From positions 1-46,745 of the IMG/VR virus record IMGVR_UViG_3300009481_000001: a DNA stretch of 46,745 nucleotides; one strand, written 5' to 3'. Below, piece after piece: positions 1 to 46,745 of this stretch (positions within the stretch are counted from its first letter, which is position 1; every line of letters begins with the position of its first letter). The position numbers were made by a program, and so were the translations under genes. The notes below the pieces were generated by a model that was given only the letters and a program-made list of their open reading frames with translations, was not told the DNA's origin and searched no databases. This DNA comes from a virus.

Positions 1-81
1 GCCTGAGCCTGAGCCTGAGCCGAGGCCGAGGCCTGAGCCGTTGCCTGAGCCGGAGCCTGAGCCTGAGCCGTCGCCGATCAA
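1..81 (-). CDS. (Gly-X)n dipeptide-repeat ORF, N-terminal 27 codons (partial at window edge)
   Basis: TTG at 81..79 overlaps the TGA (80..78) of the upstream gene as TTGA. The reverse strand reads [27 protein letters not shown] with Gly at every second codon. It continues in frame into 46745..46545 if the window ends are joined. Confidence 0.45.
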   Translation of the reverse strand, partial: MIGDGSGSGSGSGNGSGLGLGSGSGSG

Positions 82-359
82 CGGAACGTATCCAGCGCGG
101 AAGGCCCGACCGGGAACACACGACGCACTCCGATCAGGGTGGACTCGCCACGGACCGGATCGGTGATGGACGGGGACGCCGGATCCAGCCCATGGATCGC
201 CAAGTCGGCCGCCGACCCGTCCCCGACTCGACCCTTGACGTAGTAGCGCCGGAGGTGGCGCGCACCCCGCAGCACCGCCACACCATTCGGCGCGTCGAGG
301 CTTACAAGGTTCCCGCTGTAGACGCCAGAGTCTCCGGCGATGATCACGTAGCTGTCCAT
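78..359 (-). CDS. small phage protein of unknown function (93 aa)
   Basis: ORF track. ATG at 359 is preceded by GGAGAG 6 nt upstream. The pattern LRGARHLRRYY...AADLAIHGL recalls a widespread small phage protein family (from memory only). Confidence 0.7.
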   Translation of the reverse strand: MDSYVIIAGDSGVYSGNLVSLDAPNGVAVLRGARHLRRYYVKGRVGDGSAADLAIHGLDPASPSITDPVRGESTLIGVRRVFPVGPSALDTFR

Positions 360-385
360 TACTATCTCTCCGTTGTTGTTAGGTT

Positions 386-877
386 CTAGCCGAAACTCGG
401 CCTACGAATGGTGAGCACGTCGCTCCAACTACGCTTCACGAGCGAGACGGCGTTGCTTTGGTTCCCAGCGAGTACGGTGAACTCACCATCCCCGTCCTCG
501 TTGATGAACCCGACGTGCCCCGGTCCAACGTGCAGTCGAATATCTCCTGCGCGACCAAAGACAACGATGTCTCCTGGTCGAGCGTCCGTGAGACTGACTT
601 CGTCACCGTAGCTGGACCACGACTTAGCCATCGCCGAGCCCGTGAATTCCATTCCAGCCGCCCTCAGGCAGTAGTTCACGAAGGAGGAGCACCACGGGGT
701 CTCGTCGTCGGTCGCCTTGAGGCTCGTTGACTGATGGAACATCACGATGTCCGGATGATCCTCGTCGCCGGGGATCTCCTTCAGTCCGATGTACGACCGA
801 GCGATGATTAGCCACTCGGGGGCGGTCTCCGTAGCGGAGACGATCCGTAGCGGACCGCTACAGTGCGGGCACTTCAC
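386..877 (-). CDS. peptidoglycan hydrolase, NlpC/P60-CHAP-like (TIGR02594-type); endolysin candidate
   Basis: The PWCSSFVNYCL cysteine motif and downstream GHVGF histidine are typical of this hydrolase class. GTG at 877 overlaps the stop of 874..1128 as GTGA. The ORF-track start at 1006 would overlap the upstream gene by about 130 nt. Confidence 0.7.
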   Translation of the reverse strand: MKCPHCSGPLRIVSATETAPEWLIIARSYIGLKEIPGDEDHPDIVMFHQSTSLKATDDETPWCSSFVNYCLRAAGMEFTGSAMAKSWSSYGDEVSLTDARPGDIVVFGRAGDIRLHVGPGHVGFINEDGDGEFTVLAGNQSNAVSLVKRSWSDVLTIRRPSFG

Positions 878-1128
878 TTCTTGATGACCGGGGGCGCGGG
901 GGTGGGCTCGTACTCCTTGAGTCGCTCCTCCAGCAGCTTGACGATCGCCTTCTGGAACGCAGCGGAGGACTGGCCTCGGCGGGTGATGTGGTTCTTGTTG
1001 AACCACTGGCCGAGCGCCTGCTCGATGCTGTAGTTCTCCACGACCGAGGTGATGTGGATATCTAACGCGTGACGATCGCAGAATGCTTCGGCCAGGGACG
1101 GGTATAGTTCCTTCTTAATCATGGTCAT
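874..1128 (-). CDS. hypothetical protein (84 aa)
   Basis: ORF track. ATG overlaps the upstream stop as ATGA (1125..1128). Confidence 0.65.
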   Translation of the reverse strand: MTMIKKELYPSLAEAFCDRHALDIHITSVVENYSIEQALGQWFNKNHITRRGQSSAAFQKAIVKLLEERLKEYEPTPAPPVIKK

Positions 1129-1403
1129 GCTACTTCACTTCTTTCCTTGAGTTGCTCTGCGACAGACATTCCGTTGCAGACGCAGATAGAATGATCTCCG
1201 GCCACGATCTGTACGCAGTCATCCGTGATCTTCTCAGCCACGGAAGGGTTTAGTCGGCTGTTGAACTTGACATATCCTGAGTTTGTCTTCAGGATCGTCT
1301 GAAGCGTACGGTGTCCCTGCCTCGTTCGGACCCATTGGGTGAACACCCCGCACACTTCGGTGGGCTTCTTCGTAAGCCACACGTGGATCTTATAGTGGTT
1401 CAT
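1125..1403 (-). CDS. hypothetical protein (92 aa)
   Basis: ORF track. ATGA overlap with the upstream gene at 1400..1403. Confidence 0.65.
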   Translation of the reverse strand: MNHYKIHVWLTKKPTEVCGVFTQWVRTRQGHRTLQTILKTNSGYVKFNSRLNPSVAEKITDDCVQIVAGDHSICVCNGMSVAEQLKERSEVA

Positions 1404-1654
1404 TTCGGCAATCCCATCGACTCCATGACCCCAGCAGGGGATCGTCTATATAGTTCTTCGCGTACGTGCTGCTTCCTGACCTCAGCCATCGTGTGCGCTA
1501 GAGAGTCGAGACGATAGGCTAGTACATGGTCGTTTGCAACCTTCGCTACACTTCTCGCCTCTCTGATCCAGTTGATGCCATGAATGATCCTCTCTTCCAC
1601 CTGCGTTATTGGTCGAGGTCTGGAGTCTTTATTTGGAGGCAGGACGTCAGCCAC
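1400..1654 (-). CDS. hypothetical protein (84 aa)
   Basis: ORF track. GTG start overlaps the upstream stop by 8 nt (GTGGCTGA). Confidence 0.6.
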   Translation of the reverse strand: MADVLPPNKDSRPRPITQVEERIIHGINWIREARSVAKVANDHVLAYRLDSLAHTMAEVRKQHVREELYRRSPAGVMESMGLPK

Positions 1655-1967
1655 GGATCCTCCACGGACCGTGGGGCCATAGGGCTCTAAATCCTATGTA
1701 GTCTCCATTATGACGCATCGCGAAGTGCTGATTACTACCTTGAACCTGTCCAATGTACGTCCACACTTCATTGCTCTCGAACATGTCAGTCTGAGCACCC
1801 TGCTCAAGCGTCAGCGTTACGGGTGTTCCTGGGCGGGGCACGTTGATCGGATACTCGCCGGACATAGCGCAGGCGGGTTTATCTGCACCCCACCCGTGAC
1901 GGTACATGCGACCGTCTCCGTAGGTCATGAAGACCCTTCGGCAGATGTGGCATGCTCCTAGTTTCAT
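1647..1967 (-). CDS. hypothetical Cys/His-containing protein (106 aa)
   Basis: Internal ATG at 1967 (MKLGACHICRR...) overlaps the stop of the small upstream ORF as ATGA. The longer ORF-track start at 2045 would overlap that ORF. Confidence 0.6.
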   Translation of the reverse strand: MKLGACHICRRVFMTYGDGRMYRHGWGADKPACAMSGEYPINVPRPGTPVTLTLEQGAQTDMFESNEVWTYIGQVQGSNQHFAMRHNGDYIGFRALWPHGPWRIRG

Positions 1968-2056
1968 CGGCCTGTCACTCCGAAAGCGCAGACGATTAGA
2001 ATGTACGCCCCGAACATCAGGACGACGAACAGTCGATGTCTCCACTTGTCGCTCAT
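1964..2056 (-). CDS. small single-pass membrane peptide (30 aa)
   Basis: Not in the ORF track because it is under 60 aa. Translation is MSDKWRHRLFVVLMFGAYILIVCAFGVTGR. The ATG lies 1 nt after the upstream TAA, and the stop overlaps the downstream ATG (ATGA). Confidence 0.45.
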   Translation of the reverse strand: MSDKWRHRLFVVLMFGAYILIVCAFGVTGR

Positions 2057-2057
2057 A

Positions 2058-2303
2058 TTAGAACAGGTGACGAGGGTTTAGCTTGAAACTGTTCACCACG
2101 TTGTTCGTCGCTCGACGAAGGTTAATGGCTTCATAGATATGGTTGCGAGGTACTCGCTCCTTGACTGGCGTGCCGTCGTCGAGCTTGGTATTCTTGATCA
2201 CCTCCGCCTTCTGATACTTCTTCTTCATCAAGATGTGAACCACATCACAAAGTTCGTCTCCGCTGCCAAGGTGATTGTTGTCGATCTTTACGTAGTACTT
2301 CAT
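2058..2303 (-). CDS. hypothetical protein (81 aa)
   Basis: ORF track. The ATG sits in a duplicated copy of the SNF2 stop/start junction (ATGA). Confidence 0.65.
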   Translation of the reverse strand: MKYYVKIDNNHLGSGDELCDVVHILMKKKYQKAEVIKNTKLDDGTPVKERVPRNHIYEAINLRRATNNVVNSFKLNPRHLF

Positions 2304-2378
2304 GCGCTCTTCATCCTTAGGTAAGCAAGCATAAGATCGAACATCTTACCCTTGCTTCGGGTTGGCTGGTCTTCGGTC

Positions 2379-2756
2379 TCACGGTCGCTGCTTTGCGAGC
2401 CACTCGTCGGCCCGATCCCCTGCGCCCGGAGCGTTCAGCTTCATGTCGAGTACGATCTTATAGGCGTCCATAATGTTCGAGTCAAGGTAGATCAGCATGC
2501 GAATAAGTCGAGAGATTGCGACCCTGGGCACCGTGCAGTGCTTATCGATCACATTGCCGATCAGTACCGGAGGCCGAGCCAGGAGGTCCGCAAGCCATCG
2601 ATGGCACGCTTCATCGTATGCACGCTCCAAACGAAGCTCGGTCGCGCTACCTCTCATGAAGGAGTTACTGCGTCCCATCTGAGGAGGAGGGAAGAACACA
2701 GAGGACTCGCTCAGCCAGTCTTGTAGGTCTTGAATGTCTCGCTGTAGCTGCTTCAT
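2379..2756 (-). CDS. hypothetical protein (125 aa), flanked by a duplicated gene junction
   Basis: ORF track. The ATG overlaps the SNF2 stop as ATGA. The gene is bracketed by roughly 54-bp direct repeats. Confidence 0.65.
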   Translation of the reverse strand: MKQLQRDIQDLQDWLSESSVFFPPPQMGRSNSFMRGSATELRLERAYDEACHRWLADLLARPPVLIGNVIDKHCTVPRVAISRLIRMLIYLDSNIMDAYKIVLDMKLNAPGAGDRADEWLAKQRP

Positions 2757-5224
2757 GCGCTCTTCATCCTTAGGTAGGCTACCATGAGGTCGAACATCTT
2801 GCCCCCGGCACGCGTCGGCGAGTCGTTGGTCTCAATGCGCTCGGCTACGGCAGTGATGAACTTCTCCCACTCAGGTCGCTTCTCGGTAGCTTGCTCAGCC
2901 ACGCGTCGGATGGTCGATGCGATGGCTCGGTCGTCATCAGACAGCTTGTTGTAGAAGGGAGTGCCGGGCTCGTAGATGGACACGATCTTACGGTAAGCGT
3001 TCATCGTACTGCCTGCCGACCTGATCATGTCGAGGCGGGCGAGCCACGGGTTATCTCCGCGCAACCACCTATCGAGCATGTTTATACTCAGCGGCCCGTC
3101 GTATCCGGTCACCTTGCGCGCCTCAAGCTCCAGCGTATCCACGTCGTAGGTCGTGGCGGCAGCTACCTCCAGTGCGCTCTTGCTCATTTCCTCAAAGAAG
3201 GAGTAGTAGCCCTTGCGGCCAGCGTCCTGCATAATCGTCTTCTTTAGGTCGCCACGTCCACGAAGGGTGGGGTAGATATGTTCAGTCTCCAGACTCCCCG
3301 AGATCATGAGGTGGTAGATCAGTGAGCACGTCCCGCCTGACACTGGCCTCATGCGCGCCTGATCGTAGTTGTCAGAGTTGAACCCCATGTTCCAGAAGAT
3401 GGCTCCGTCAGCAGAGGAGAGCGTCAGCCCGTGACCGATGCTGGAGTGCTTACCCACGAAGAAGGTCCGCTTGCCATCCTGGAACTCCGTTACGTGGTCG
3501 GCGAAGATGTCATCCACCGTACCGTACGAGTGCCCCGCCGTGCGCTCACGCTTCGCCTTCAGGAGCCCCCCCCACGACACTCCGAGTTCATCAAGGGTGT
3601 CAGCTACTATAGCCTCGCCTTCGTTGAACTCGCAGAAGATGATCATCTGCTGGCCGGGGTGCGTATCGATGAAGTCCTTGAGCCAGTCAACCTTCGGGTT
3701 CCCTGGCAGGCGCGCACGCCCGAAGACCCCTGGCCCGGTCTCAAACGAGAAGAACCCTGAGCAGATCTCTCGGAGACGAAGGAGTTGCACGAGTACGTTC
3801 GCTGCCTCGTTTTCTAGCTCCATCCCGTCCGCGGTCTCCAGCACAGCCATGTATGCGTTCAGCATGTGCTTGTATACCTCGGCCTGAACCGGGTCCGCCT
3901 TCAGTCGGACGTTCATGGTGTACGTGTCGCGCCCGGTGAACTGTTCAGCCTCGCCTCTCGTGCATCGGAGCATGTAGTACCCGCTTAGGTCGTGAAAGAG
4001 CGCTTTCCTGTGACGCATGAAGCCGACGTTCCCTCGCCCGTCGTCCGTGAAGAAGGACGCAGCAAACGCATCGATGTTATCACCGAGGATACCTGGGTCG
4101 ATGCAGAATGCCTGCGGCCAGATGTCCTGATGGAGTCGGCTCACGGGTGCGCCTGACAGTTCGTACAGGTACTCGACTTCAAGACTGATACCCATGTTCC
4201 CGAGCGTCCGCTTCGCCTTCGGGTTCTTCAGCTTGACCGTCTCGTCCATGATTACCATGATACGCTTCGGGTCGTAGAGTTGACGCATCACGCGCCAGTT
4301 GATCGCTGCTGACTCGAAGGAGGAGAGGTAGTGGGTCCAGTCGTAATTGATTGCTTCGAGCCGAGTGGCCTCCGAGTTCATGATGATCGATCGGTTGCCG
4401 GGCGTGTACCTGTCGTTCTCGTCACGCCATGCCGTGTTCAGCAGGCGTACCGGGGCGATGATAAACACCGCGTCGATCTCTCCCTGGTCCCTAAGCTCCT
4501 GCTCTAGTGCCTTAAGCATTGGGGTCTTACCGGTCCGCTGCTCGTATGCGAAGAGGACGCGCTTGACTGCGACTCCGAGTTCGACCCCGGCCCGCTGCTG
4601 GTAGTAGAACGCACGATCCTTACATGTGTGTGCATCGACCCAGGTCCCTGCGGTACGCTTCATGGTCACACCCCACGGTGTCGGGATCTCTTCCTTGCCA
4701 CCGCCGATCTTGATCTTCTCAGCACGTTCGAACTGAGCCTGTCGGAAGTCAAGCTCAGCCATCCGGTACTGCAAGGAGGTGGCGAGCCGAACACCGGCCG
4801 CTCCGGACATGTGCTTCTTTGCGATACCGTGCTCAAGGAGCTTGTCAATGTTATAGTGGTTCGCCGGGAACCGTACGTGGTTCCTGTCCGCAGTCACGTA
4901 GGCGCAGACGAACCCCGTACTCTCGGGCCTGAGCAGGAAGCCGCTCGCCGCAGTCCACATGCGGGGGGCTGTGATCATGTTCAGGTGATCTATGGTGAAG
5001 TCGGACTTGCCGTAGTCGAAGCTCTCTACATCGGAAACGGCGGTTTGGTAGACGATCTTGCGCTCGGCTGCGCCTACTAGAGGGACACGGACACGATCGA
5101 AGCACCGCTTGCAGATCAGGATGACTTCATCGACCTTGTTGGTGACGGAGGCGACCGTATACCCGCACTTGCCGCAGGTATAGTCTCGCGCATCGTGCAT
5201 GTTATTGTAGCGTTCCTCAGGCAC
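2753..5224 (-). CDS. SNF2-family helicase with N-terminal zinc ribbon
   Basis: CGKCG...CKRC ribbon at the N-terminus. DETVKLKN (DExH-like box II), IIFCEF, and GHGLTLSSADGAIFWNMGFNSDNYDQARMR (motifs V/VI) are typical of SNF2 ATPases. Confidence 0.8.
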   Translation of the reverse strand: MPEERYNNMHDARDYTCGKCGYTVASVTNKVDEVILICKRCFDRVRVPLVGAAERKIVYQTAVSDVESFDYGKSDFTIDHLNMITAPRMWTAASGFLLRPESTGFVCAYVTADRNHVRFPANHYNIDKLLEHGIAKKHMSGAAGVRLATSLQYRMAELDFRQAQFERAEKIKIGGGKEEIPTPWGVTMKRTAGTWVDAHTCKDRAFYYQQRAGVELGVAVKRVLFAYEQRTGKTPMLKALEQELRDQGEIDAVFIIAPVRLLNTAWRDENDRYTPGNRSIIMNSEATRLEAINYDWTHYLSSFESAAINWRVMRQLYDPKRIMVIMDETVKLKNPKAKRTLGNMGISLEVEYLYELSGAPVSRLHQDIWPQAFCIDPGILGDNIDAFAASFFTDDGRGNVGFMRHRKALFHDLSGYYMLRCTRGEAEQFTGRDTYTMNVRLKADPVQAEVYKHMLNAYMAVLETADGMELENEAANVLVQLLRLREICSGFFSFETGPGVFGRARLPGNPKVDWLKDFIDTHPGQQMIIFCEFNEGEAIVADTLDELGVSWGGLLKAKRERTAGHSYGTVDDIFADHVTEFQDGKRTFFVGKHSSIGHGLTLSSADGAIFWNMGFNSDNYDQARMRPVSGGTCSLIYHLMISGSLETEHIYPTLRGRGDLKKTIMQDAGRKGYYSFFEEMSKSALEVAAATTYDVDTLELEARKVTGYDGPLSINMLDRWLRGDNPWLARLDMIRSAGSTMNAYRKIVSIYEPGTPFYNKLSDDDRAIASTIRRVAEQATEKRPEWEKFITAVAERIETNDSPTRAGGKMFDLMVAYLRMKSA

Positions 5225-10190: not shown

Positions 10191-10220
10191 CACACACGAA
10201 TACACACGAATACACACGAA
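10191..10220 (+). repeat. tandem decamer (T/C)ACACACGAA x3
   Basis: Read directly. It is embedded in about 280 bp of alternating CA/TG-rich sequence upstream of the terminase genes. Confidence 0.8.
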
Positions 10221-10374
10221 TACGCTCGACGACCGGGCGCCACGTGTTAAATTCAATACTATCTAGACCCAACACATTTTTTCCAAAAATTCAGCCAAAA
10301 TTATATATTACATATTTGGCGGAAAATCATACCATGTCTGGATTCCACAGTAACAACGGGCACTTACAAGCCAC

Positions 10375-10409: not shown

Positions 10410-10721
10410 ATGGCCGACGAATCAAACCTCCTTGCGTTCCCGCCACGAGCGGACAGTAACCTACCGGCGAAGGCAGACGAGCGCATAAACATGCTCAGCA
10501 GTATCGGCGTCACTCATGAGAGCCTGCTTGCGAATCTGGCAGATATAGCACAGACCGGAACGAAAAGAGTGATCACTAAGGACGCTCAAGGCAGTGTGGT
10601 CAAGGAGGTTATCTCAGAGGACCCAGGCGTTCGCCTAGCTGCTACTGCTAAGCTTCTTGAAATCTTCGAACCCAAGCCGAAGCGCAGCAAGAGGGGATAC
10701 ATCGAGGAGACTGAGTGGTAA
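10410..10721 (+). CDS. putative small terminase subunit (103 aa)
   Basis: Small gene immediately upstream of, and overlapping, the large terminase (GTGGTAA). The call rests on position only. Confidence 0.45.
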   Translation: MADESNLLAFPPRADSNLPAKADERINMLSSIGVTHESLLANLADIAQTGTKRVITKDAQGSVVKEVISEDPGVRLAATAKLLEIFEPKPKRSKRGYIEETEW

Positions 10722-23626: not shown

Positions 23627-24508
23627 ATGGCAGATGGAATCACGGGCGGAAGTGGGAACCCTAGCGGATTTCTCGCGTCTGAGCGTTTCGACTTCGACGC
23701 TTACTACGAAGAGAACCCAGCAGCATTGGATCAGGACCTTCAGAAGACGAAGGACGAGATCAAGACCCAGGTCATGTTTGACAACATGGGCCAGGGATCT
23801 GGTCAGTTCGGTGGGCTCGCGTTCGGGATCGTTGGGATCGCGGTTGGTGCAATCTACGGACTCGTAGACGGTATCGCGTTCGATGCAGCCATCGATGCGT
23901 CTATCGAGGAAGCGAAGGAGCGACGAGAGAACATCGAGCGCGACATCGAAGAGGTCATGAACTTCCGAGCCGACATCGAAAACAAGATGGCTCAGTACAC
24001 GACACCGATGGAGCAGGCTCTACGCGAGAGGGCTAAGGCACATGGTCTCGGCCTCCGAGCGCAGGGCATTAGTGGTCCTCAGTTGATCGCAGCACAACTT
24101 ACTGCTGAGCGCCAATACCGAGAGACTGTCGGACCGAACATAACTCGTGCGATCGGTGAAGCGTCTACCGCTGCGCGCGCAGATGCGATGGCAAGGCTCC
24201 AGGCGGTCGAGTCGAAGTACGGCATCATCCTGAACCAGCAGCGTGCCGAACTCTTGCAGTCACAGCAGGTTGCACAACTGAAGGCTGGTCAGCAGAGCAG
24301 TATCCAGGGTGGAATCGGTGCTATAGCAGGAGCGTTCGGTACGCTTATCGACGAGGCGATCGACCAGAACCAGAGCCAGGGGCCGACCGAGACCGGCCAG
24401 GGGTCGACCGAGACCGGGCAGGACCAGCCGCCTCCCGCTGAGGAAGATCCGTTCGAGATGCCTGACCAGGCAACCGGCGGACCATCCGGGATGGAGAACA
24501 TCGCGTAA
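23627..24508 (+). CDS. putative internal virion protein with one transmembrane-like segment (293 aa)
   Basis: Hydrophobic segment GGLAFGIVGIAVGAIYGLVDGIAF, then Q/A-rich coiled-coil-like sequence and an acidic Pro-rich tail. Confidence 0.4.
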   Translation: MADGITGGSGNPSGFLASERFDFDAYYEENPAALDQDLQKTKDEIKTQVMFDNMGQGSGQFGGLAFGIVGIAVGAIYGLVDGIAFDAAIDASIEEAKERRENIERDIEEVMNFRADIENKMAQYTTPMEQALRERAKAHGLGLRAQGISGPQLIAAQLTAERQYRETVGPNITRAIGEASTAARADAMARLQAVESKYGIILNQQRAELLQSQQVAQLKAGQQSSIQGGIGAIAGAFGTLIDEAIDQNQSQGPTETGQGSTETGQDQPPPAEEDPFEMPDQATGGPSGMENIA

Positions 24509-45513: not shown

Positions 45514-45789
45514 TCACTCGGCTTTCTGGCATTCCTTGTACCAGAGGAAGCGGGAGCCGCATTCTGCGACCAGAAGATGACTCTTTGTTTTGAGAGTCCA
45601 GGCTTCATGTTCGCCGCAAGGGCACTGAGCCATACCCCATCCCGTGACAGCTTCGATGTGACCACCGAGGTCTCTTGGCAGTCTGATTACGTCTGGAGCG
45701 GAATAGTCCATGGCGATCGCCATCCCCTCCACGTCTTTAGACGGGGCAACAGGGTCGCCTGCTTTCTTGATGAAGTATTCTATGGTCAT
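45514..45789 (-). CDS. hypothetical protein (91 aa)
   Basis: ATG at 45789 overlaps the upstream stop (ATGA). The ORF-track GTG at 45795 is the alternative start. Confidence 0.55.
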   Translation of the reverse strand: MTIEYFIKKAGDPVAPSKDVEGMAIAMDYSAPDVIRLPRDLGGHIEAVTGWGMAQCPCGEHEAWTLKTKSHLLVAECGSRFLWYKECQKAE

Positions 45790-46199
45790 CCACACTCTCC
45801 TGACCAGTAGCAGTCACAACACGTGATACACGTACCATTCCGTTGCGTGTTCCACGAGAAGCAGTTGGCACACTGCTCACCTGATGCGAGCGTCCCGAGC
45901 GAGATAACTGGCGCTGGTCGCTCCACGACCTTGCGTGTGTGCTTATTCTCCTGCTGTACCGAGACCACTGGCCGACCGTTGCAGAAGAAGGCTACCTCGA
46001 CCGTAGGGGTGAGCGCGTCACACTTCGTACATGCTCGTGTTCGGAACACATACGAAGCGTTCGGCATTTCACCGGCTACGATCTTGGCGAGCCTCGACGA
46101 CACGTCAGCATCGTGATCCCTTGTCTCCTTTACGTAGTGCAGGTGACCATCGCACTCGGGAATGGAGCAGGGAATGAAGGTCCTAGCCGACACAGTCAA
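45786..46199 (-). CDS. Cys-rich zinc-ribbon protein (137 aa)
   Basis: CSIPECDG...CTKCD and C-terminal CANC...CITCCDC. The TTG start overlaps the stop of the Gly-X ORF as TTGA. GTG at 46193 is an alternative start. Confidence 0.6.
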   Translation of the reverse strand: MTVSARTFIPCSIPECDGHLHYVKETRDHDADVSSRLAKIVAGEMPNASYVFRTRACTKCDALTPTVEVAFFCNGRPVVSVQQENKHTRKVVERPAPVISLGTLASGEQCANCFSWNTQRNGTCITCCDCYWSGECG

Positions 46200-46414
46200 A
46201 ATCCGTAGCCGGAGCCGTCGCCTGAGCCGTCGCCCGAGCCGTCGCCGAAGCCGAGGCCTGAGCCGTCGCCTGAGCCGGAGCCGTCGCCTGAGCCGAAGCC
46301 GAGGCCTGAGCCGTTGCCGGAGCCGGAGCCTGAGCCTGAGCCTGAGCCTGAGCCGAGGCCGTCGCCGGAGCCGAAGCCGGAGCCTGAGCCGTCGCCGGAG
46401 CCGTCGCCGATCAA
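46196..46414 (-). CDS. (Gly-X)n dipeptide-repeat protein (72 aa)
   Basis: ORF track. After MI, Gly occupies every second position for 70 residues, with X = S, D, N, L, F or Y. TTGA overlaps occur at both ends. Confidence 0.5.
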
Positions 46415-46437
46415 CGGAACGTATCCAGCGCGGAAGG
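46398..46437. repeat. 40-nt perfect direct repeat of 65..104
   Basis: Read directly. It covers the stop of the 93-aa gene or its remnant and the TTG start of the Gly-X ORF. Confidence 0.9.
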
Positions 46438-46548
46438 CAGGTTCCCGATGATCACGTAGCTGTCCATTACTATCTCTCCGTTGTTGTTAGGTTCTAGCCG
46501 AAACTCGGGAATGGAGCAGGGAATGAAGGTCCTAGCCGACACAGTCAA
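46411..46548 (-). CDS. chimeric 45-codon ORF (possibly a pseudogene or coupling leader)
   Basis: It joins the first 15 codons of the 137-aa gene ([15 protein letters not shown]), a translated copy of the 5-prime UTR of 78..359, and an internally deleted 18-codon remnant [18 protein letters not shown]. It remains in frame from TTG 46548 to TGA 46411. Confidence 0.35.
46446..46508. repeat. 63-nt perfect direct repeat of 338..400
   Basis: Read directly. It covers the first 7 codons and the 5-prime UTR of the 93-aa gene. Confidence 0.9.
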
Positions 46549-46550
46549 AA
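46503..46550. repeat. 48-nt perfect direct repeat of 46154..46201
   Basis: Read directly. It covers the start of the 137-aa gene and overlaps the 63-nt repeat by ACTCGG. Confidence 0.9.
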
Positions 46551-46745
46551 GCCGGAGCCTGAGCCGAAGCCGGAGCCTGAGCCTGAGCCGAAGCCGAGGC
46601 CTGAGCCGTTGCCGGAGCCGGAGCCTGAGCCTGAGCCGAGGCCGAGGCCGTCGCCGAAGCCGAAGCCGGAGCCGAAGCCGTCGCCGTAGCCGTTGCCTGA
46701 GCCTGAGCCGTTGCCGAAGCCGTCGCCTGAGCCTGAGCCTGAGCC
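46545..46745 (-). CDS. (Gly-X)n dipeptide-repeat ORF, C-terminal 66 codons (partial at window edge)
   Basis: The reverse strand reads [66 protein letters not shown]-stop. The stop overlaps TTG 46548 as TTGA. Confidence 0.45.

Follow-up and report, generated by a model that had tools for sequence, protein, structure and literature searches.

The duplicated Gly-X locus

The window (the whole 46,745-nt stretch of viral DNA analysed here) carries two short ORFs on its reverse strand, GX1 and GX2, in which Gly stands at all odd positions from residue 3 to the end and at none of the even ones (42 of 86 residues in GX1, 35 of 72 in GX2; Table 1). Such strict periodicity in both ORFs lies far beyond chance. 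The residue alternating with Gly, X, is only ever S, D, N, L, F or Y (GX1/GX2: S 21/18, D 4/8, N 4/1, Y 1/1, F 7/4, L 5/3), Ile is the first residue after the TTG start in both, and the C-termini read GSGSGF and GSGYGF before the stop. An earlier note on this DNA had pointed out the two paralogous ORFs, their restricted X residues and the shared G-x-G-F-stop ends, all of which we find as described. It had also put GX1 at about 86–93 residues if the ends of the record join; the joined ORF is real, and its length is exactly 86 residues and not 93 because a 21-nt overlap drops out. This follows from an ENA record of the same circle (ERZ27249630 k141_1538930, L001; 46,865 bp), which holds the region in one piece and agrees with the window only after removal of the 21 nt. 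Tandem Repeats Finder reports both ORFs as period-6 arrays (33.5 and 32.7 copies) and finds no comparable array elsewhere in the window. Gly is encoded by GGC at 76 of 77 positions, compared with 33% across the genome, and TCA is over-represented among the Ser codons; codon use so unlike the rest of the genome means that DNA-level repeat dynamics clearly shape the arrays.

Table 1. Features at the Gly-X locus (positions in the window).
Feature	Position	Strand	Remarks
CHAP/NlpC-P60 cell-wall hydrolase	1006..386 (longest ORF); 877..386 (ENA call)	(-)	Pfam CHAP E 9e-10, NLPC_P60 E 3e-5
RBS GGAGAG	371..366	(-)	6 nt before ATG of 93-aa gene; read from sequence
93-aa DUF6948-like small beta-barrel, conserved partner	359..78	(-)	TGA stop overlaps GX1 TTG start (TTGA)
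GX1, 5' part	81..1	(-)	TTG start 81..79; ORF resumes at 46724
GX1, 3' part	46724..46545	(-)	TGA 46547..46545; with 81..1 gives an 86-aa strict (G-X)n protein
21-nt terminal redundancy	46725..46745		identical to 1..21; assembly overlap, removed on joining ends
45-aa chimeric ORF	46548..46411	(-)	start overlaps GX1 stop (TTGA), stop overlaps GX2 start (TTGA)
18-codon mini-ORF, copy 2 of 93-aa gene	46467..46411	(-)	RBS 46479..46474, ATG and TTGA junction to GX2 kept
GX2, strict (G-X)n, 72 aa	46414..46196	(-)	TTG start 46414..46412; TGA stop 46198..46196
137-aa Cys-rich protein, zinc-ribbon-like	46199..45786	(-)	several CxxC pairs; start overlapped by GX2 stop
Duplication unit 1	395..1 + 46724..46504		616 nt
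Duplication unit 2	46503..46155	(-)	349 nt

The ENA gene caller made no call across the 608-nt stretch that holds both GX ORFs, which are links in an unbroken chain of overlapping ORFs: the 93-aa gene, GX1, the 45-aa ORF, GX2, the 137-aa gene and a next gene that begins at an ATGA overlap (91 aa according to the ENA caller; longest ORF 93 aa, 45795..45514). The placement of the ORFs just downstream of the hydrolase gene, as first described, is right as to neighbourhood, but the 93-aa gene stands between the hydrolase and GX1. PHROG matches of the hydrolase are to tail lysozyme/endolysin families. The 137-aa protein has no family match in Pfam, PHROG or PADLOC; its gene has no RBS of its own and is therefore probably dependent on coupling to GX2. 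Scans for promoters and terminators near the window arrays gave nothing above chance. The window holds no tRNA genes, which rules out the idea of a phage-encoded tRNA-Gly.

Comparison of the two copies traces them to a tandem duplication of 616 nt at the microhomology CCGAG, as seen in short-read assemblies (the window and ENA records are probably not independent read sets). The pentamer stands at both junctions, the left one being the last bases of the hydrolase gene (400..396); the duplicated flanks show 100% identity, unlike the arrays, which have diverged. In copy 2, the 93-aa gene carries two in-frame deletions (codons 8–15 and 19–85) that leave 18 codons, and this second partner copy was trimmed in frame to an ORF retaining only the translational-coupling signals. 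The 45-aa ORF is a chimera in which codons 1–15 of the 137-aa gene are followed by the read-through hydrolase tail and RBS and then by the remnant of the 93-aa gene.

The DUF6948-like partner and its linkage to Gly-X ORFs

The 93-aa protein matches Pfam PF22253 (DUF6948) over profile positions 3–83 of 85 with 24.4 bits (E 3.2e-5), below the gathering threshold of 27 bits. Two of its relatives (P0003 and P0008) have precomputed PF22253 matches, and the best BFVD matches of its AlphaFold2 model (pLDDT 92.8; five strands and an inserted helix) are DUF6948 proteins (TM 0.84, rmsd 1.4). Because of the sub-threshold score, the PF22253 relatives and the DUF6948-like fold, we class the gene as a divergent relative of DUF6948 and not as a formal Pfam member. 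Its metagenome homologues share 57–69% identity with it, and an Arg/Trp/Tyr motif is conserved in DUF6948, reading RRxWxW family-wide and RHLRRYY in the subfamily of the window. The top 50 PDB matches of the model (Foldseek) are all LSm/Sm-type chains, among the best of them LSm14, archaeal Sm and spliceosomal Sm chains; the similarity is weak (E 5e-3 to 3e-2 with query TM 0.43–0.55; over the 50 matches E 5e-3 to 9e-2, query TM 0.36–0.55, target TM up to 0.70). The sequence itself has no relative in the PDB, no Pfam LSM or Hfq match and no evident Sm1/Sm2 motifs.

Relatives of the locus were not reached by direct comparison: megablast of window positions 1–3000 against 50,697 GenBank phages gave no match, tblastn of the 93-aa protein against GenBank phages none, and IMG/VR scans with the single 93-aa or 137-aa protein nothing, so that an alignment of homologues was needed for IMG/VR and only the canonical DUF6948 query reached cultured phages. 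A homologue search with the GX1 protein gave three weak matches among the best 8000 candidates, two of them informative (P0028 and P0029). The earlier note had proposed that the neighbourhood of 93-aa gene homologues be searched for (GX)n ORFs; this proved just the check that was informative, and its outcome is strongly positive, a GX ORF following the homologue in nearly every relative. Called G-X ORFs directly follow it in four contigs from other metagenomes (L002, L008, L009, L010), and three further contigs (L006, L007, L011) end exactly at a GX-type start (GTGAACGGC, ATGACCGGC and GTGA). The search with the partner alignment found a GX ORF at 6/6 IMG/VR loci and at the one MAG locus; one contig (L015) has two GX ORFs in tandem and its own GGAGG RBS. 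Eight of the nine GenBank phage lineages retrieved with the canonical DUF6948 query have a GX ORF as well.

The reverse approach started from the arrays. Scanning IMG/VR with the DNA pattern (GGCNNC)x11GGC yielded at least 120 loci, 101 of them with upstream sequence; a DUF6948-like ORF ends within 120 nt upstream on the same strand in 75 of the 101, is fused in one more, lies within a few hundred nt in a further 18 and is lacking in 7. Pfam PF22253 independently matched 68 of 95 neighbouring DUF6948-like ORFs, about a quarter of these neighbours being recognised only by iterated HMM. With the control pattern (GGWNNN)x11GGW, 120 loci that are mostly microsatellites had a DUF6948-like ORF in only 7, and at all seven a Y/D/S/N/F-type array lies directly downstream of it. 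The GX ORF overlaps the end of the partner gene in 93 of 110 cases, 47 of them in the 4-nt NTGA form; the window junctions fit such coupling, with TTGA at GX1 and the same TTGA behind the 18-codon remnant at GX2. The P0028 locus, where a Pfam DUF6948 gene is directly upstream, has a Ser/Phe/Leu array like those of the window.

Depending on the strictness with which adjacency is defined, each partner predicts the other roughly 75–90% of the time, and the GX ORFs are genetically locked to a DUF6948-family gene, at or inside its end or fused to it. The phages that show this linkage range in GC content from 0.30 to 0.74, and their hosts are as varied as Pectobacterium, Vibrio and Chlorobiaceae. 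Cultured carriers are Ralstonia phage NK-7, Iodobacter phage PhiPLPE, the Pectobacterium Koroua group, Pectobacterium phage Ymer, Vibrio phage IKEMa6-1 and Chlorobiaceae phage CV-1-33, in which the GX ORF is annotated as "hypothetical", as "fibroin heavy chain-like" (XCO36015) or not at all (PhiPLPE RefSeq). The pair adjoins capsid, portal, terminase, recombination or replication genes in relatives, and assemblies often break at the arrays. We found no published description of GX proteins, DUF6948 or glycine-rich/Sm-like phage pairs in searches of open-access papers, which agrees with the earlier remark that a phage function for proteins of this kind is not on record. We could not find the family described before; it is defined here and not curated. 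It stayed invisible because low-complexity ORFs are masked by BLAST, skipped by gene callers and liable to break short-read assemblies.

The earlier caution over the coding frame was justified, and linkage together with protein-level conservation now decides for Gly-X: GX1 and GX2 very probably code in this frame and belong to the DUF6948-coupled family. The Pro-X frame on the other strand had been called open and is not, having one TAG in each window array; the opposite-strand Arg/Ser frame is open as stated, and so are the two other sense-strand frames. Stop counts in 13 close arrays leave G-X as the only frame stop-free in all. Openness alone cannot pick the frame, since most frames are stop-free in a sample of 108 arrays (Pro-X is open in 2/108). 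At the protein level, the Gly codon is GGC in GC-rich phages and GGT or GGA in AT-rich ones, and X across the family is Y (35%), D (26%), S (24%) or N (7.5%), together about 94%, under a search pattern that would have allowed 15 different residues. The Ser-rich window arrays are atypical of the family, with Phe and Leu standing in the usual Tyr positions. In the GX family, the (G-X)n stretch comes after a leader that is short and unique, and the median protein is about 90 aa long (50–150 aa for the free-standing proteins); the M-I-G leader of the window proteins resembles VIG/VID in four relatives (L010, L014, L016, L073), and subfamily leader and tail motifs are conserved (LTLDG; [FY]RP[VI]G with a C-terminal TVS..RRR). 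GX is fused in frame to DUF6948 at one locus (L041; E 1e-22), to a globular domain of about 160–190 aa with no Pfam, PHROG, PDB or PADLOC relative at 15 loci, and to other small domains at P0028 and P0029. The arrays of L008 and L009 differ in length by 18 nt, in frame.

Possible functions of the pair

Searches with the GX proteins themselves returned nothing meaningful from Pfam, PHROGs or PADLOC; sub-threshold "TrAA12-like" matches (profile about 380–450) are most likely compositional and due to the Gly-rich tract. PADLOC had no match for the 93-aa protein, GX2, the downstream genes, canonical DUF6948 or the fused C-terminal domain. AlphaFold2, run on the single GX2 sequence, gave a pLDDT of 41, no structure and no strands.

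Overall, we consider a coding GX family that acts with its DUF6948 partner as a disordered polypeptide in a multivalent assembly to be the likely explanation. On the single-sequence prediction, the GX polypeptide would be intrinsically disordered, with a sticker-and-spacer design of aromatic Tyr/Phe stickers on a Gly/Ser/Asp/Asn spacer of net negative charge. Its synthesis would keep pace with that of the DUF6948 protein, which it would serve as a tail in trans, and we lean towards a physical partnership of the two. DUF6948, with its Sm/LSm-like predicted fold and Arg/Trp/Tyr motif, would join GX in a multivalent assembly acting early in infection on RNA or DNA metabolism or on a host factor; that the assembly is specifically multivalent or condensate-type is a tentative suggestion. 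The arrays would evolve by slippage, which would explain their single Gly codon and variable length. Taken further, and with considerable doubt, the pair might be a two-part phage assembly system in which an Sm-like barrel, probably oligomeric, is combined with a G-alternating low-complexity chain in trans or fused. A similarly speculative idea is that, early in infection, the pair drives a multivalent structure of higher order (condensate, gel or fibre) in which RNA, DNA or a host factor is organised or sequestered, and we offer with the same reserve the thought that it is a phage counterpart of the eukaryotic RNA-granule scaffolds built as an LSm domain plus a prion-like tail, with a length tunable by slippage.

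Several explanations compete with this one at the level of what the chain does. A silk- or amyloid-like structural protein, in which beta-strands with an all-Gly face stack into fibrils or sheets and form a scaffold in the cell or virion, is unlikely. The resemblance to silk raised in the earlier note holds for the dipeptide periodicity, exactly 2 over 70–86 residues, and for the automatic name of one GenBank homologue (XCO36015); X is also rich in the Y, S, N and F typical of zippers and LARKS, and the partner could nucleate or cap such an assembly. Against this, about a quarter of X is Asp, with runs such as (GD)12 whose repulsion opposes sheet stacking, Ala (dominant in fibroin crystallites) and a signal peptide are absent, AlphaFold2 predicts no strands, and the genes lie among early or replication-type genes and not in structural modules. 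Rather improbable in our judgement is a nucleic-acid mimic or decoy that occupies the binding surface of the Sm-like partner or of a host defence or nucleic-acid-binding protein, in the way that the acidic C-terminal tail of Hfq occupies its own RNA/DNA-binding surface. Its appeal lies in the net negative charge (pI 4.05), the shares of Asp and Tyr among family X residues, the Sm-like predicted fold of the partner with its conserved basic/aromatic motif, a location typical of early accessory genes and, as pure inference, side chains on the same face that would be about 7 A apart in an extended chain, near phosphate spacing, with which Asp/Tyr arrays could pass for single-stranded nucleic acid. 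However, the window arrays are weakly acidic (4 Asp in GX1, 8 in GX2), Val-, Leu-, Phe- or Cys-rich variants exist (L016, P0028, and L078, a contig without upstream sequence), and neither PADLOC nor known anti-defence families offer a likeness. That the tract is a slippery Gly-rich segment stalling host AAA+ unfoldases and proteases (ClpXP, Lon, FtsH), alone or on a folded domain, seems improbable: glycine-rich stop signals, the Gly-Ala repeat of EBNA1 among them, are analogues, and the GX tracts are virus-encoded, variable in length and repeatedly fused or coupled to folded domains (L041, the 15-locus fusion family, P0028 and P0029), but they have no degron-like termini, and the Y/D/S/N bias and the choice of a DUF6948 partner would go unexplained. 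It is scarcely credible that the ORFs encode a lysis accessory tied to the CHAP hydrolase, or the precursor of a Gly-rich microcin, bacteriocin or RiPP. Small Gly/Ser-rich ORFs do lie near a cell-wall hydrolase gene in the window; yet modification, export and immunity genes are lacking nearby, 119 related loci show no recurrence of such families, the ORFs have neither a double-glycine nor a McbA-type leader, and the proteins are acidic and not cationic. The microcin idea of the earlier note is not supported. Nor is its tie to the hydrolase and lysis, as the pair in relatives keeps the other company described above and is not beside lysis genes; since the neighbours in related loci include no recurrent lysis family, we reject a lysis link.

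Other explanations deny that the Gly-X chain is the product at all. A non-coding hexanucleotide minisatellite or RNA/DNA element, its open frames a by-product of GGCNNC and its translation incidental, would account for the single Gly codon per array, the atypical codon usage, the silence of the ENA gene caller, the four or five open frames out of six and the breaking of assemblies at arrays. What makes it very unlikely is that the frame, the start placement on the partner's stop, the in-frame fusions (to four different globular domains) and the residue pattern are kept while the Gly codon moves from GGC to GGT or GGA over GC 0.30–0.74, which is not the behaviour of a non-coding minisatellite; in addition, X falls to about 94% on four of the 15 allowed residues, and leader and tail peptides are conserved. 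In PhiPLPE and L002, no gene lies between GX and a terminator-like hairpin, so GX is not merely a ribosome relay there. The array RNA folds less stably than shuffled sequences (z +2.8) and has no Rfam match, and on these grounds we reject the idea of a structured RNA. Use of another frame or recoding, whether an antisense Arg/Ser ORF, the Pro-X frame or a -1 frameshift fusing the 93-aa protein to GX, is most improbable. The antisense ORF (46162..46497) is open and has a plausible start (ATG plus GGAG), GX is read in frame -1 with respect to its partner gene, and the L041 fusion shows that a DUF6948-GX protein is viable. Yet Pro-X has stops in nearly all arrays, the antisense ORF opposes the whole operon and has no conserved start or partner in relatives, the inspected junctions share no slippery heptamer, and an ATG, GTG or TTG start is kept at relatives' junctions which, with the RBS of L015, is what independent initiation predicts.

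GX-DUF6948 is one of the tightest two-gene linkages in phage "dark matter" and gives a first functional handle on DUF6948. It also offers a natural, strictly periodic aromatic/acidic Gly polymer for studies of sequence, disorder and assembly in prokaryotes, and cultured, genetically tractable phages have the pair, which makes the question directly testable. Should the condensate or fibre assembly, or the mimic/decoy, prove true, phages would have in this pair a takeover device of a new class; otherwise the arrays are still striking as a coding minisatellite that has undergone concerted evolution while selected at the protein level.

Comparison with known systems

The fibroin heavy chain of Bombyx mori, (GAGAGS)n/GAGAGY, has Gly at every second residue and Ser and Tyr among X, like the phage proteins. 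Fibroin is very large and secreted, whereas the phage proteins are 70–140 aa (72–86 aa in the window), lack Ala and are cytoplasmic with no signal peptide or terminal domains; the two share composition and no homology. The Gly-Ala repeat of Epstein-Barr virus EBNA1 is likewise virus-encoded, Gly-alternating and variable in length, with a monotonous GGN-rich mRNA. That repeat is irregular (Gly, Gly-Gly, Ala), has only Ala besides Gly, and lies inside a large DNA-binding protein where it serves immune evasion. The phage repeat is strictly regular and has a partner gene, unlike its counterpart in a eukaryotic virus. Polyglycine-II/PPII-helix bundles (snow-flea antifreeze protein, phage S16 gp38) have a three-residue GGX/GXX period, unlike the GX period of exactly 2 residues or 6 nt. 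Gly-rich microcins, such as the MccB17 precursor McbA and the class II microcins E492, H47 and M, resemble the GX proteins in being small and rich in Gly and Ser. The GX proteins differ from them in being acidic and phage-encoded, in having a cytoplasmic beta-barrel as conserved partner, and in lacking a leader or cleavage site, a Cys/Ser heterocycle context and linked modification, export or immunity genes.

Further likenesses are found among proteins with nucleic-acid-binding-type folds. FUS-family prion-like/LARKS domains carry [G/S]Y[G/S] repeats of an aromatic sticker and a G/S/N spacer. GX proteins have a similar composition of G, Y/F and S/N/D, with aromatics evenly spread on a flexible spacer and no predicted structure, and are coupled genetically to a domain with an RNA-binding-type predicted fold; they differ in a period of strictly 2, no Gln, high Asp and a free-standing 50–150-aa protein of a prokaryotic virus. 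Sm and LSm proteins have Gly-rich tails, (RG)n in SmD1, SmD3 and SmB and RGG in LSm4 and LSm14/Scd6; Hfq has a GGFGGQ-repeat C-terminus in Acinetobacter and an acidic C-terminal tail in E. coli. The phage X residues are Y/D/S/N (F/L/S in the window phage), acidic and not Arg-rich, and the partner, with a moderate TM of about 0.5, is without evident Sm1/Sm2 motifs or a Pfam LSM match. The tail in the phages is usually a separate, translationally coupled ORF. The shared layout is a predicted small bent beta-barrel plus a repetitive Gly-rich segment that is presumably disordered, and at L041 the two are one polypeptide. Plant glycine-rich proteins with GXGX repeats and glycine-rich RNA-binding proteins also have a (G-X)n or G/Y-rich tail with a nucleic-acid-binding-type fold; the plant glycine-rich RNA-binding proteins are eukaryotic, with Arg/Tyr/Gly-rich basic tails, an RRM and no strict dipeptide register. 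In tobacco GR-RBP1, the Gly-rich tail is described as contributing to RNA chaperoning (PMC4117745).

Duplicated Gly-X genes at the window ends

The two strict (Gly-X)n ORFs that the earlier note had placed on the reverse strand, here GX1 and GX2, were borne out by sequence reading and by ENA contig k141_1538930 (ERZ27249630; 46,865 bp, MEGAHIT) of the same circle, in which the region is contiguous. The first 21 nt of the window (1-21) are an exact direct repeat of the last 21 nt (46725-46745), lie inside GX1, and must be removed once for the window to equal the ENA record. For this reason GX1 has 86 aa, the lower end of the range of 86-93 aa proposed for joined ends, and not 93. Naive joining of the ends introduces 7 spurious codons and a Gly-Gly break into GX1. 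Both records give a circle of 46,724 bp if k141_1538930 carries the usual 141-nt end overlap, which was assumed from its k141 name.

From residue 3 up to the stop, the odd-numbered residues of both proteins are all Gly, the X residues are drawn from S, D, N, L, F and Y, and the pI is 4.05; the C-termini, GSGSGF and GSGYGF, run directly into the stop codon. Tandem Repeats Finder resolved the DNA into period-6 arrays of ~33 copies each and found no second array of comparable kind elsewhere in the window. Of the opposite-strand frames, Arg/Ser is open as the earlier note had it, but Pro-X is not fully so, each array carrying one TAG in it; the TGA frame is closed. Two short, perfect or near-perfect tandem repeats unrelated to the GX arrays were also seen: (ACACACGAAT)x3.2 at 10192-10223, ~190 nt upstream of the rightward ORF starting at 10410, and a 21-nt unit x2.3 at 24375-24422, inside the ORF 23627-24508.

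Coordinates of the Gly-X genes and associated features (window positions unless stated)
Feature	Position	Strand	Remark
CHAP/NlpC-P60 hydrolase gene	1006..386	-	First in reverse-strand order at window end
GGAGAG ribosome-binding site (RBS)	Between hydrolase gene and 93-aa gene	-	Sequence reading
93-aa gene	359..78	-	TGA stop overlaps GX1 start (TTGA)
GX1, 86 aa	81..1 plus 46724..46545	-	TTG start 81..79; crosses window ends at base 1
GX2, 72 aa	46414..46196	-	Sequence reading
Duplication unit 1	395..1 plus 46724..46504	-	Sequence comparison
Duplication unit 2	46503..46155	-	Sequence comparison
18-codon remnant of 93-aa gene (copy 2)	46411-46467	-	Keeps RBS, ATG and TTGA junction to GX2
Iodobacter phage PhiPLPE GX ORF, 78 aa	NC_011142.1 46281..46045 (= L260 1173-1409)		Unannotated in RefSeq genome

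Both copies derive from a segment of 616 nt present in tandem twice. It starts directly behind a CCGAG at the hydrolase gene's 3' end and stops at another CCGAG, which lies in codons 14-15 of the gene for a 137-aa protein that follows GX2. The two units have identical flanks; their arrays differ by substitutions and by indels of 24 and 18 nt. Unit 2 lacks codons 8-15 and 19-85 of the 93-aa gene, both deletions being in frame. As read from the sequence, 4-nt start/stop overlaps link all genes between the 93-aa gene and the gene after the 137-aa ORF, both included, and the chain is unbroken because the copy-2 remnant retains its start signals and junction, which suggests that translational coupling is what copy 2 preserved of the partner gene. 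The 137-aa protein (45786-46199, reverse strand) is Cys-rich and zinc-ribbon-like, with several CxxC pairs; its gene starts on the GX2 stop and lacks an RBS of its own. It is followed by a reverse-strand ORF at 45514-45795, whose longest form has 93 aa and whose called form has 91 aa; neither this product nor the 137-aa protein matched a family in Pfam, PHROGs or PADLOC.

Like duplications recur in unrelated phages, so the one in the window appears to be a habit of the module. The whole unit of partner and GX gene is tandemly duplicated in loci L123 and L052, and the GX ORF alone recurs in 2-4 copies (duplication loci overall: L123, L052, L015, L041, L073, L094 and L149).

Linkage to DUF6948 and the coding frame

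For the partner, the 93-aa protein encoded upstream of GX1, AlphaFold2 run with ten homologues confidently predicts a small beta-barrel (pLDDT 92.8). Among viral models, proteins named "DUF6948 domain-containing" match it best (TM 0.84), and its best PDB matches are all of LSm/Sm type (LSM14, archaeal Sm, spliceosomal Sm), although only moderate (E 5e-3 or worse, TM ~0.5); the PDB holds no sequence relative. A basic/aromatic motif is conserved, ARHLRRYY in the window's subfamily and RR.W.W more broadly. Among 1.84 billion proteins, that small subfamily accounts for 17 clusters at 50% identity.

A search for (GX)n ORFs beside homologues of the 93-aa gene, suggested in the earlier note, was positive. 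Nine homologues (57-69% identity) were traced to contigs: L002, L008, L009 and L010 carry a called Gly-X ORF of 64-106 aa starting on the partner stop (GTGA), with an in-frame 18-nt insertion between L008 and L009; L006, L007 and L011 break off precisely where such a start lies (GTGAACGGC, ATGACCGGC and GTGA); and the GX ORF is absent solely in the L003-L005 lineage. Scans with A1, an alignment of partner homologues, found a GX ORF in 6/6 IMG/VR loci and the one MAG contig; L015 has two in tandem, the first with its own GGAGG RBS. With a canonical DUF6948 query, a GX ORF lay downstream in 8/9 GenBank phage lineages, comprising Ralstonia phage NK-7 (annotated "fibroin heavy chain-like protein"), PhiPLPE, Pectobacterium phage Koroua, Chlorobiaceae phage CV-1-33 (gene25), Vibrio phage IKEMa6-1 and three uncultured records. 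The PhiPLPE ORF begins MSRLVNNKNGDGSGYGDGYG... and is flanked by gp84 (DUF6948) on one side and, on the other, by a GC-rich hairpin with a trailing T-run that resembles a terminator.

The same linkage was recovered from the array. A blind IMG/VR search with the pattern (GGCNNC)x11GGC gave at least 120 loci (L019-L138), and almost every match listed contains a small ORF of this type. To detect neighbours, an HMM was started from A1 and refined iteratively on the array loci. Among the matches listed, a DUF6948-like ORF ends no more than 120 nt upstream in 75 of the 101 loci with upstream sequence; the remainder comprises one fusion, 18 loci with such an ORF nearby and seven with none. Pfam PF22253 was matched independently by 68/95 of these neighbouring ORFs. 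A control pattern, (GGWNNN)x11GGW, yielded in 120 loci mostly true microsatellites, (GA)n, (GR)n and (GV)n, and a DUF6948-like ORF in only seven, exactly those with a G-[Y/D/S/N/F] array directly downstream. These seven encode Gly as GGT or GGA in genomes of GC 0.30-0.52; since such arrays keep both the pattern and the linkage, the amino-acid pattern and not the DNA is what is conserved. A Ser/Phe/Leu-type array resembling the window's (protein P0028) likewise lies behind a Pfam DUF6948 gene.

The earlier note had doubted the coding frame. Open frames alone prove little because GGCNNC repeats seldom generate stops, and the doubt was resolved for Gly-X by comparative evidence instead. X is Y, D, S or N in 94% of cases where the pattern permitted 15 residues. 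Among the matches listed, 93/110 GX ORFs overlap the partner gene end, 47 via NTGA, with start choice being heuristic. Leader and tail peptides are conserved per subfamily (LTLDG; [FY]RP[VI]G with C-terminal TVS..RRR). L041 encodes DUF6948 and GX in a single ORF (Pfam E 1e-22), 15 loci carry an in-frame fusion of leader, GX and a globular domain of ~160-190 aa, and further small N- or C-terminal domains are fused in frame in L030, L033, L076, P0028 and P0029. Linkage, control, X restriction, fusions, conserved termini and overlaps combine to establish, at the level of comparative sequence analysis, that the coding frame is Gly-X and that the genes form a real family; an alternative reading frame or frameshift fusion is disfavoured, as is a non-coding repeat. 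The GX2 mRNA fold is less stable than shuffled sequence (z +2.8), Rfam matched nothing anywhere in the window, and the window contains no tRNA genes.

A DUF6948 gene always directly precedes the fusion to the ~160-190-aa domain (carriers include L049, L056, L067, L070, L075, L080, L084, L023, L263 and L267). The fused domain is without known relatives, bears the motifs IDGV.T, RGN.AKG, FAHGETL, DMPEE.RI and DWHHRLTGSC, and may be a clue to the module's function.

Repeat dynamics and genome context

Gly is GGC in 76/77 codons of the window arrays versus 33% in the genome's long ORFs, and the Ser codon TCA is over-used. Each array keeps to one Gly codon, be it GGC, GGT or GGA, with GGT in 38/38 (L211) and GGA in 12/12 (L165); such arrays were also seen in L022, L025, L183, L199 and others, and all-GGC arrays are present in AT-rich loci (GC 0.36-0.46). 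Such usage could reflect homogenisation by slippage, cassette transfer between phages or demand for one tRNA-Gly. Together with contigs ending at arrays, it fits concerted evolution by slippage on a protein-constrained repeat. Contigs very often end at or inside a GX array (L006, L007, L011, L013, L014, L018 and 19 of L019-L138). Short-read assemblies break at the arrays, so that catalogues probably under-count the family. In L012 (IMG/VR, ~790-850), the GX ORF ends after 17 residues and GC-rich sequence gives way abruptly to AT-rich; this contig probably arose by a chimeric join at the repeat during assembly.

Its major head protein, primase, SNF2 helicase, DNA methyltransferase and CHAP hydrolase mark the window as the genome of a novel phage. 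Most large rightward ORFs at 10715-31543 (forward strand; 744, 637, 388, 657, 416 and 592 aa) had no PHROG match at E <= 1e-5, the major head protein being the sole recognisable product among those scanned; the phage is very distant from characterised phages. No PADLOC model matched the 93-aa protein, GX2, the downstream genes, a canonical DUF6948 protein or the fused domain. Across 119 related loci, the only families recurring near the pair are DUF6948 and the GX-fused domain, followed by SSB-like and cytosine-methylase genes (7 loci each), and in cultured phages the pair adjoins recombination, SSB, regulator, small-terminase or HNH genes. Proximity to the cell-wall hydrolase had invited a tie to lysis, which these neighbours do not uphold: no lysis link was found among them in either set, and a microcin or lysis role is disfavoured.

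Possible role and relation to known systems

The DUF6948 and GX genes are co-located, mostly overlapping and sometimes fused, and GX may act as an in-trans tail of the barrel protein. AlphaFold2 gave GX a pLDDT of 41 and no secondary structure, weak evidence from a single sequence, and the chain may be disordered; a silk- or amyloid-like fibre is considered unlikely. In composition GX would be a net-negative chain in which Gly/Ser/Asn/Asp spacers separate aromatic stickers. Such a chain might also be read as a nucleic-acid mimic or decoy, which seems quite improbable, or as a slippery tract that jams AAA+ proteases, to which we give very little credence. We tentatively favour a multivalent assembly of barrel plus tail, which would act early in infection on nucleic-acid metabolism or a host factor, because of the putative disorder, the in-trans tail, the sticker/spacer grammar and the recurrence of Sm-plus-tail designs.

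In the open-access literature, no paper was found that mentions DUF6948, GX peptide strings or "fibroin heavy chain-like" phage proteins. GX proteins are not described in a survey that covered low-complexity regions of 102 phage proteomes, and which notes that these regions are normally poor in aromatic residues (PMC6821194). Unrecognised homologues sit in public genomes, and the window genes are therefore new members of a family. We rate this family and its pairing with DUF6948, judged by the genes, as matching no described kind of system.

The sticker/spacer grammar that GX appears to use, with its aromatic stickers, is typical of FUS-type low-complexity and LARKS segments. An Sm-like fold with a Gly-rich tail, to which DUF6948 plus GX may be likened, is a recurrent design, found in the RG tails of Sm proteins, in LSm4 and LSm14, and in the GGFGGQ tail of Acinetobacter Hfq.
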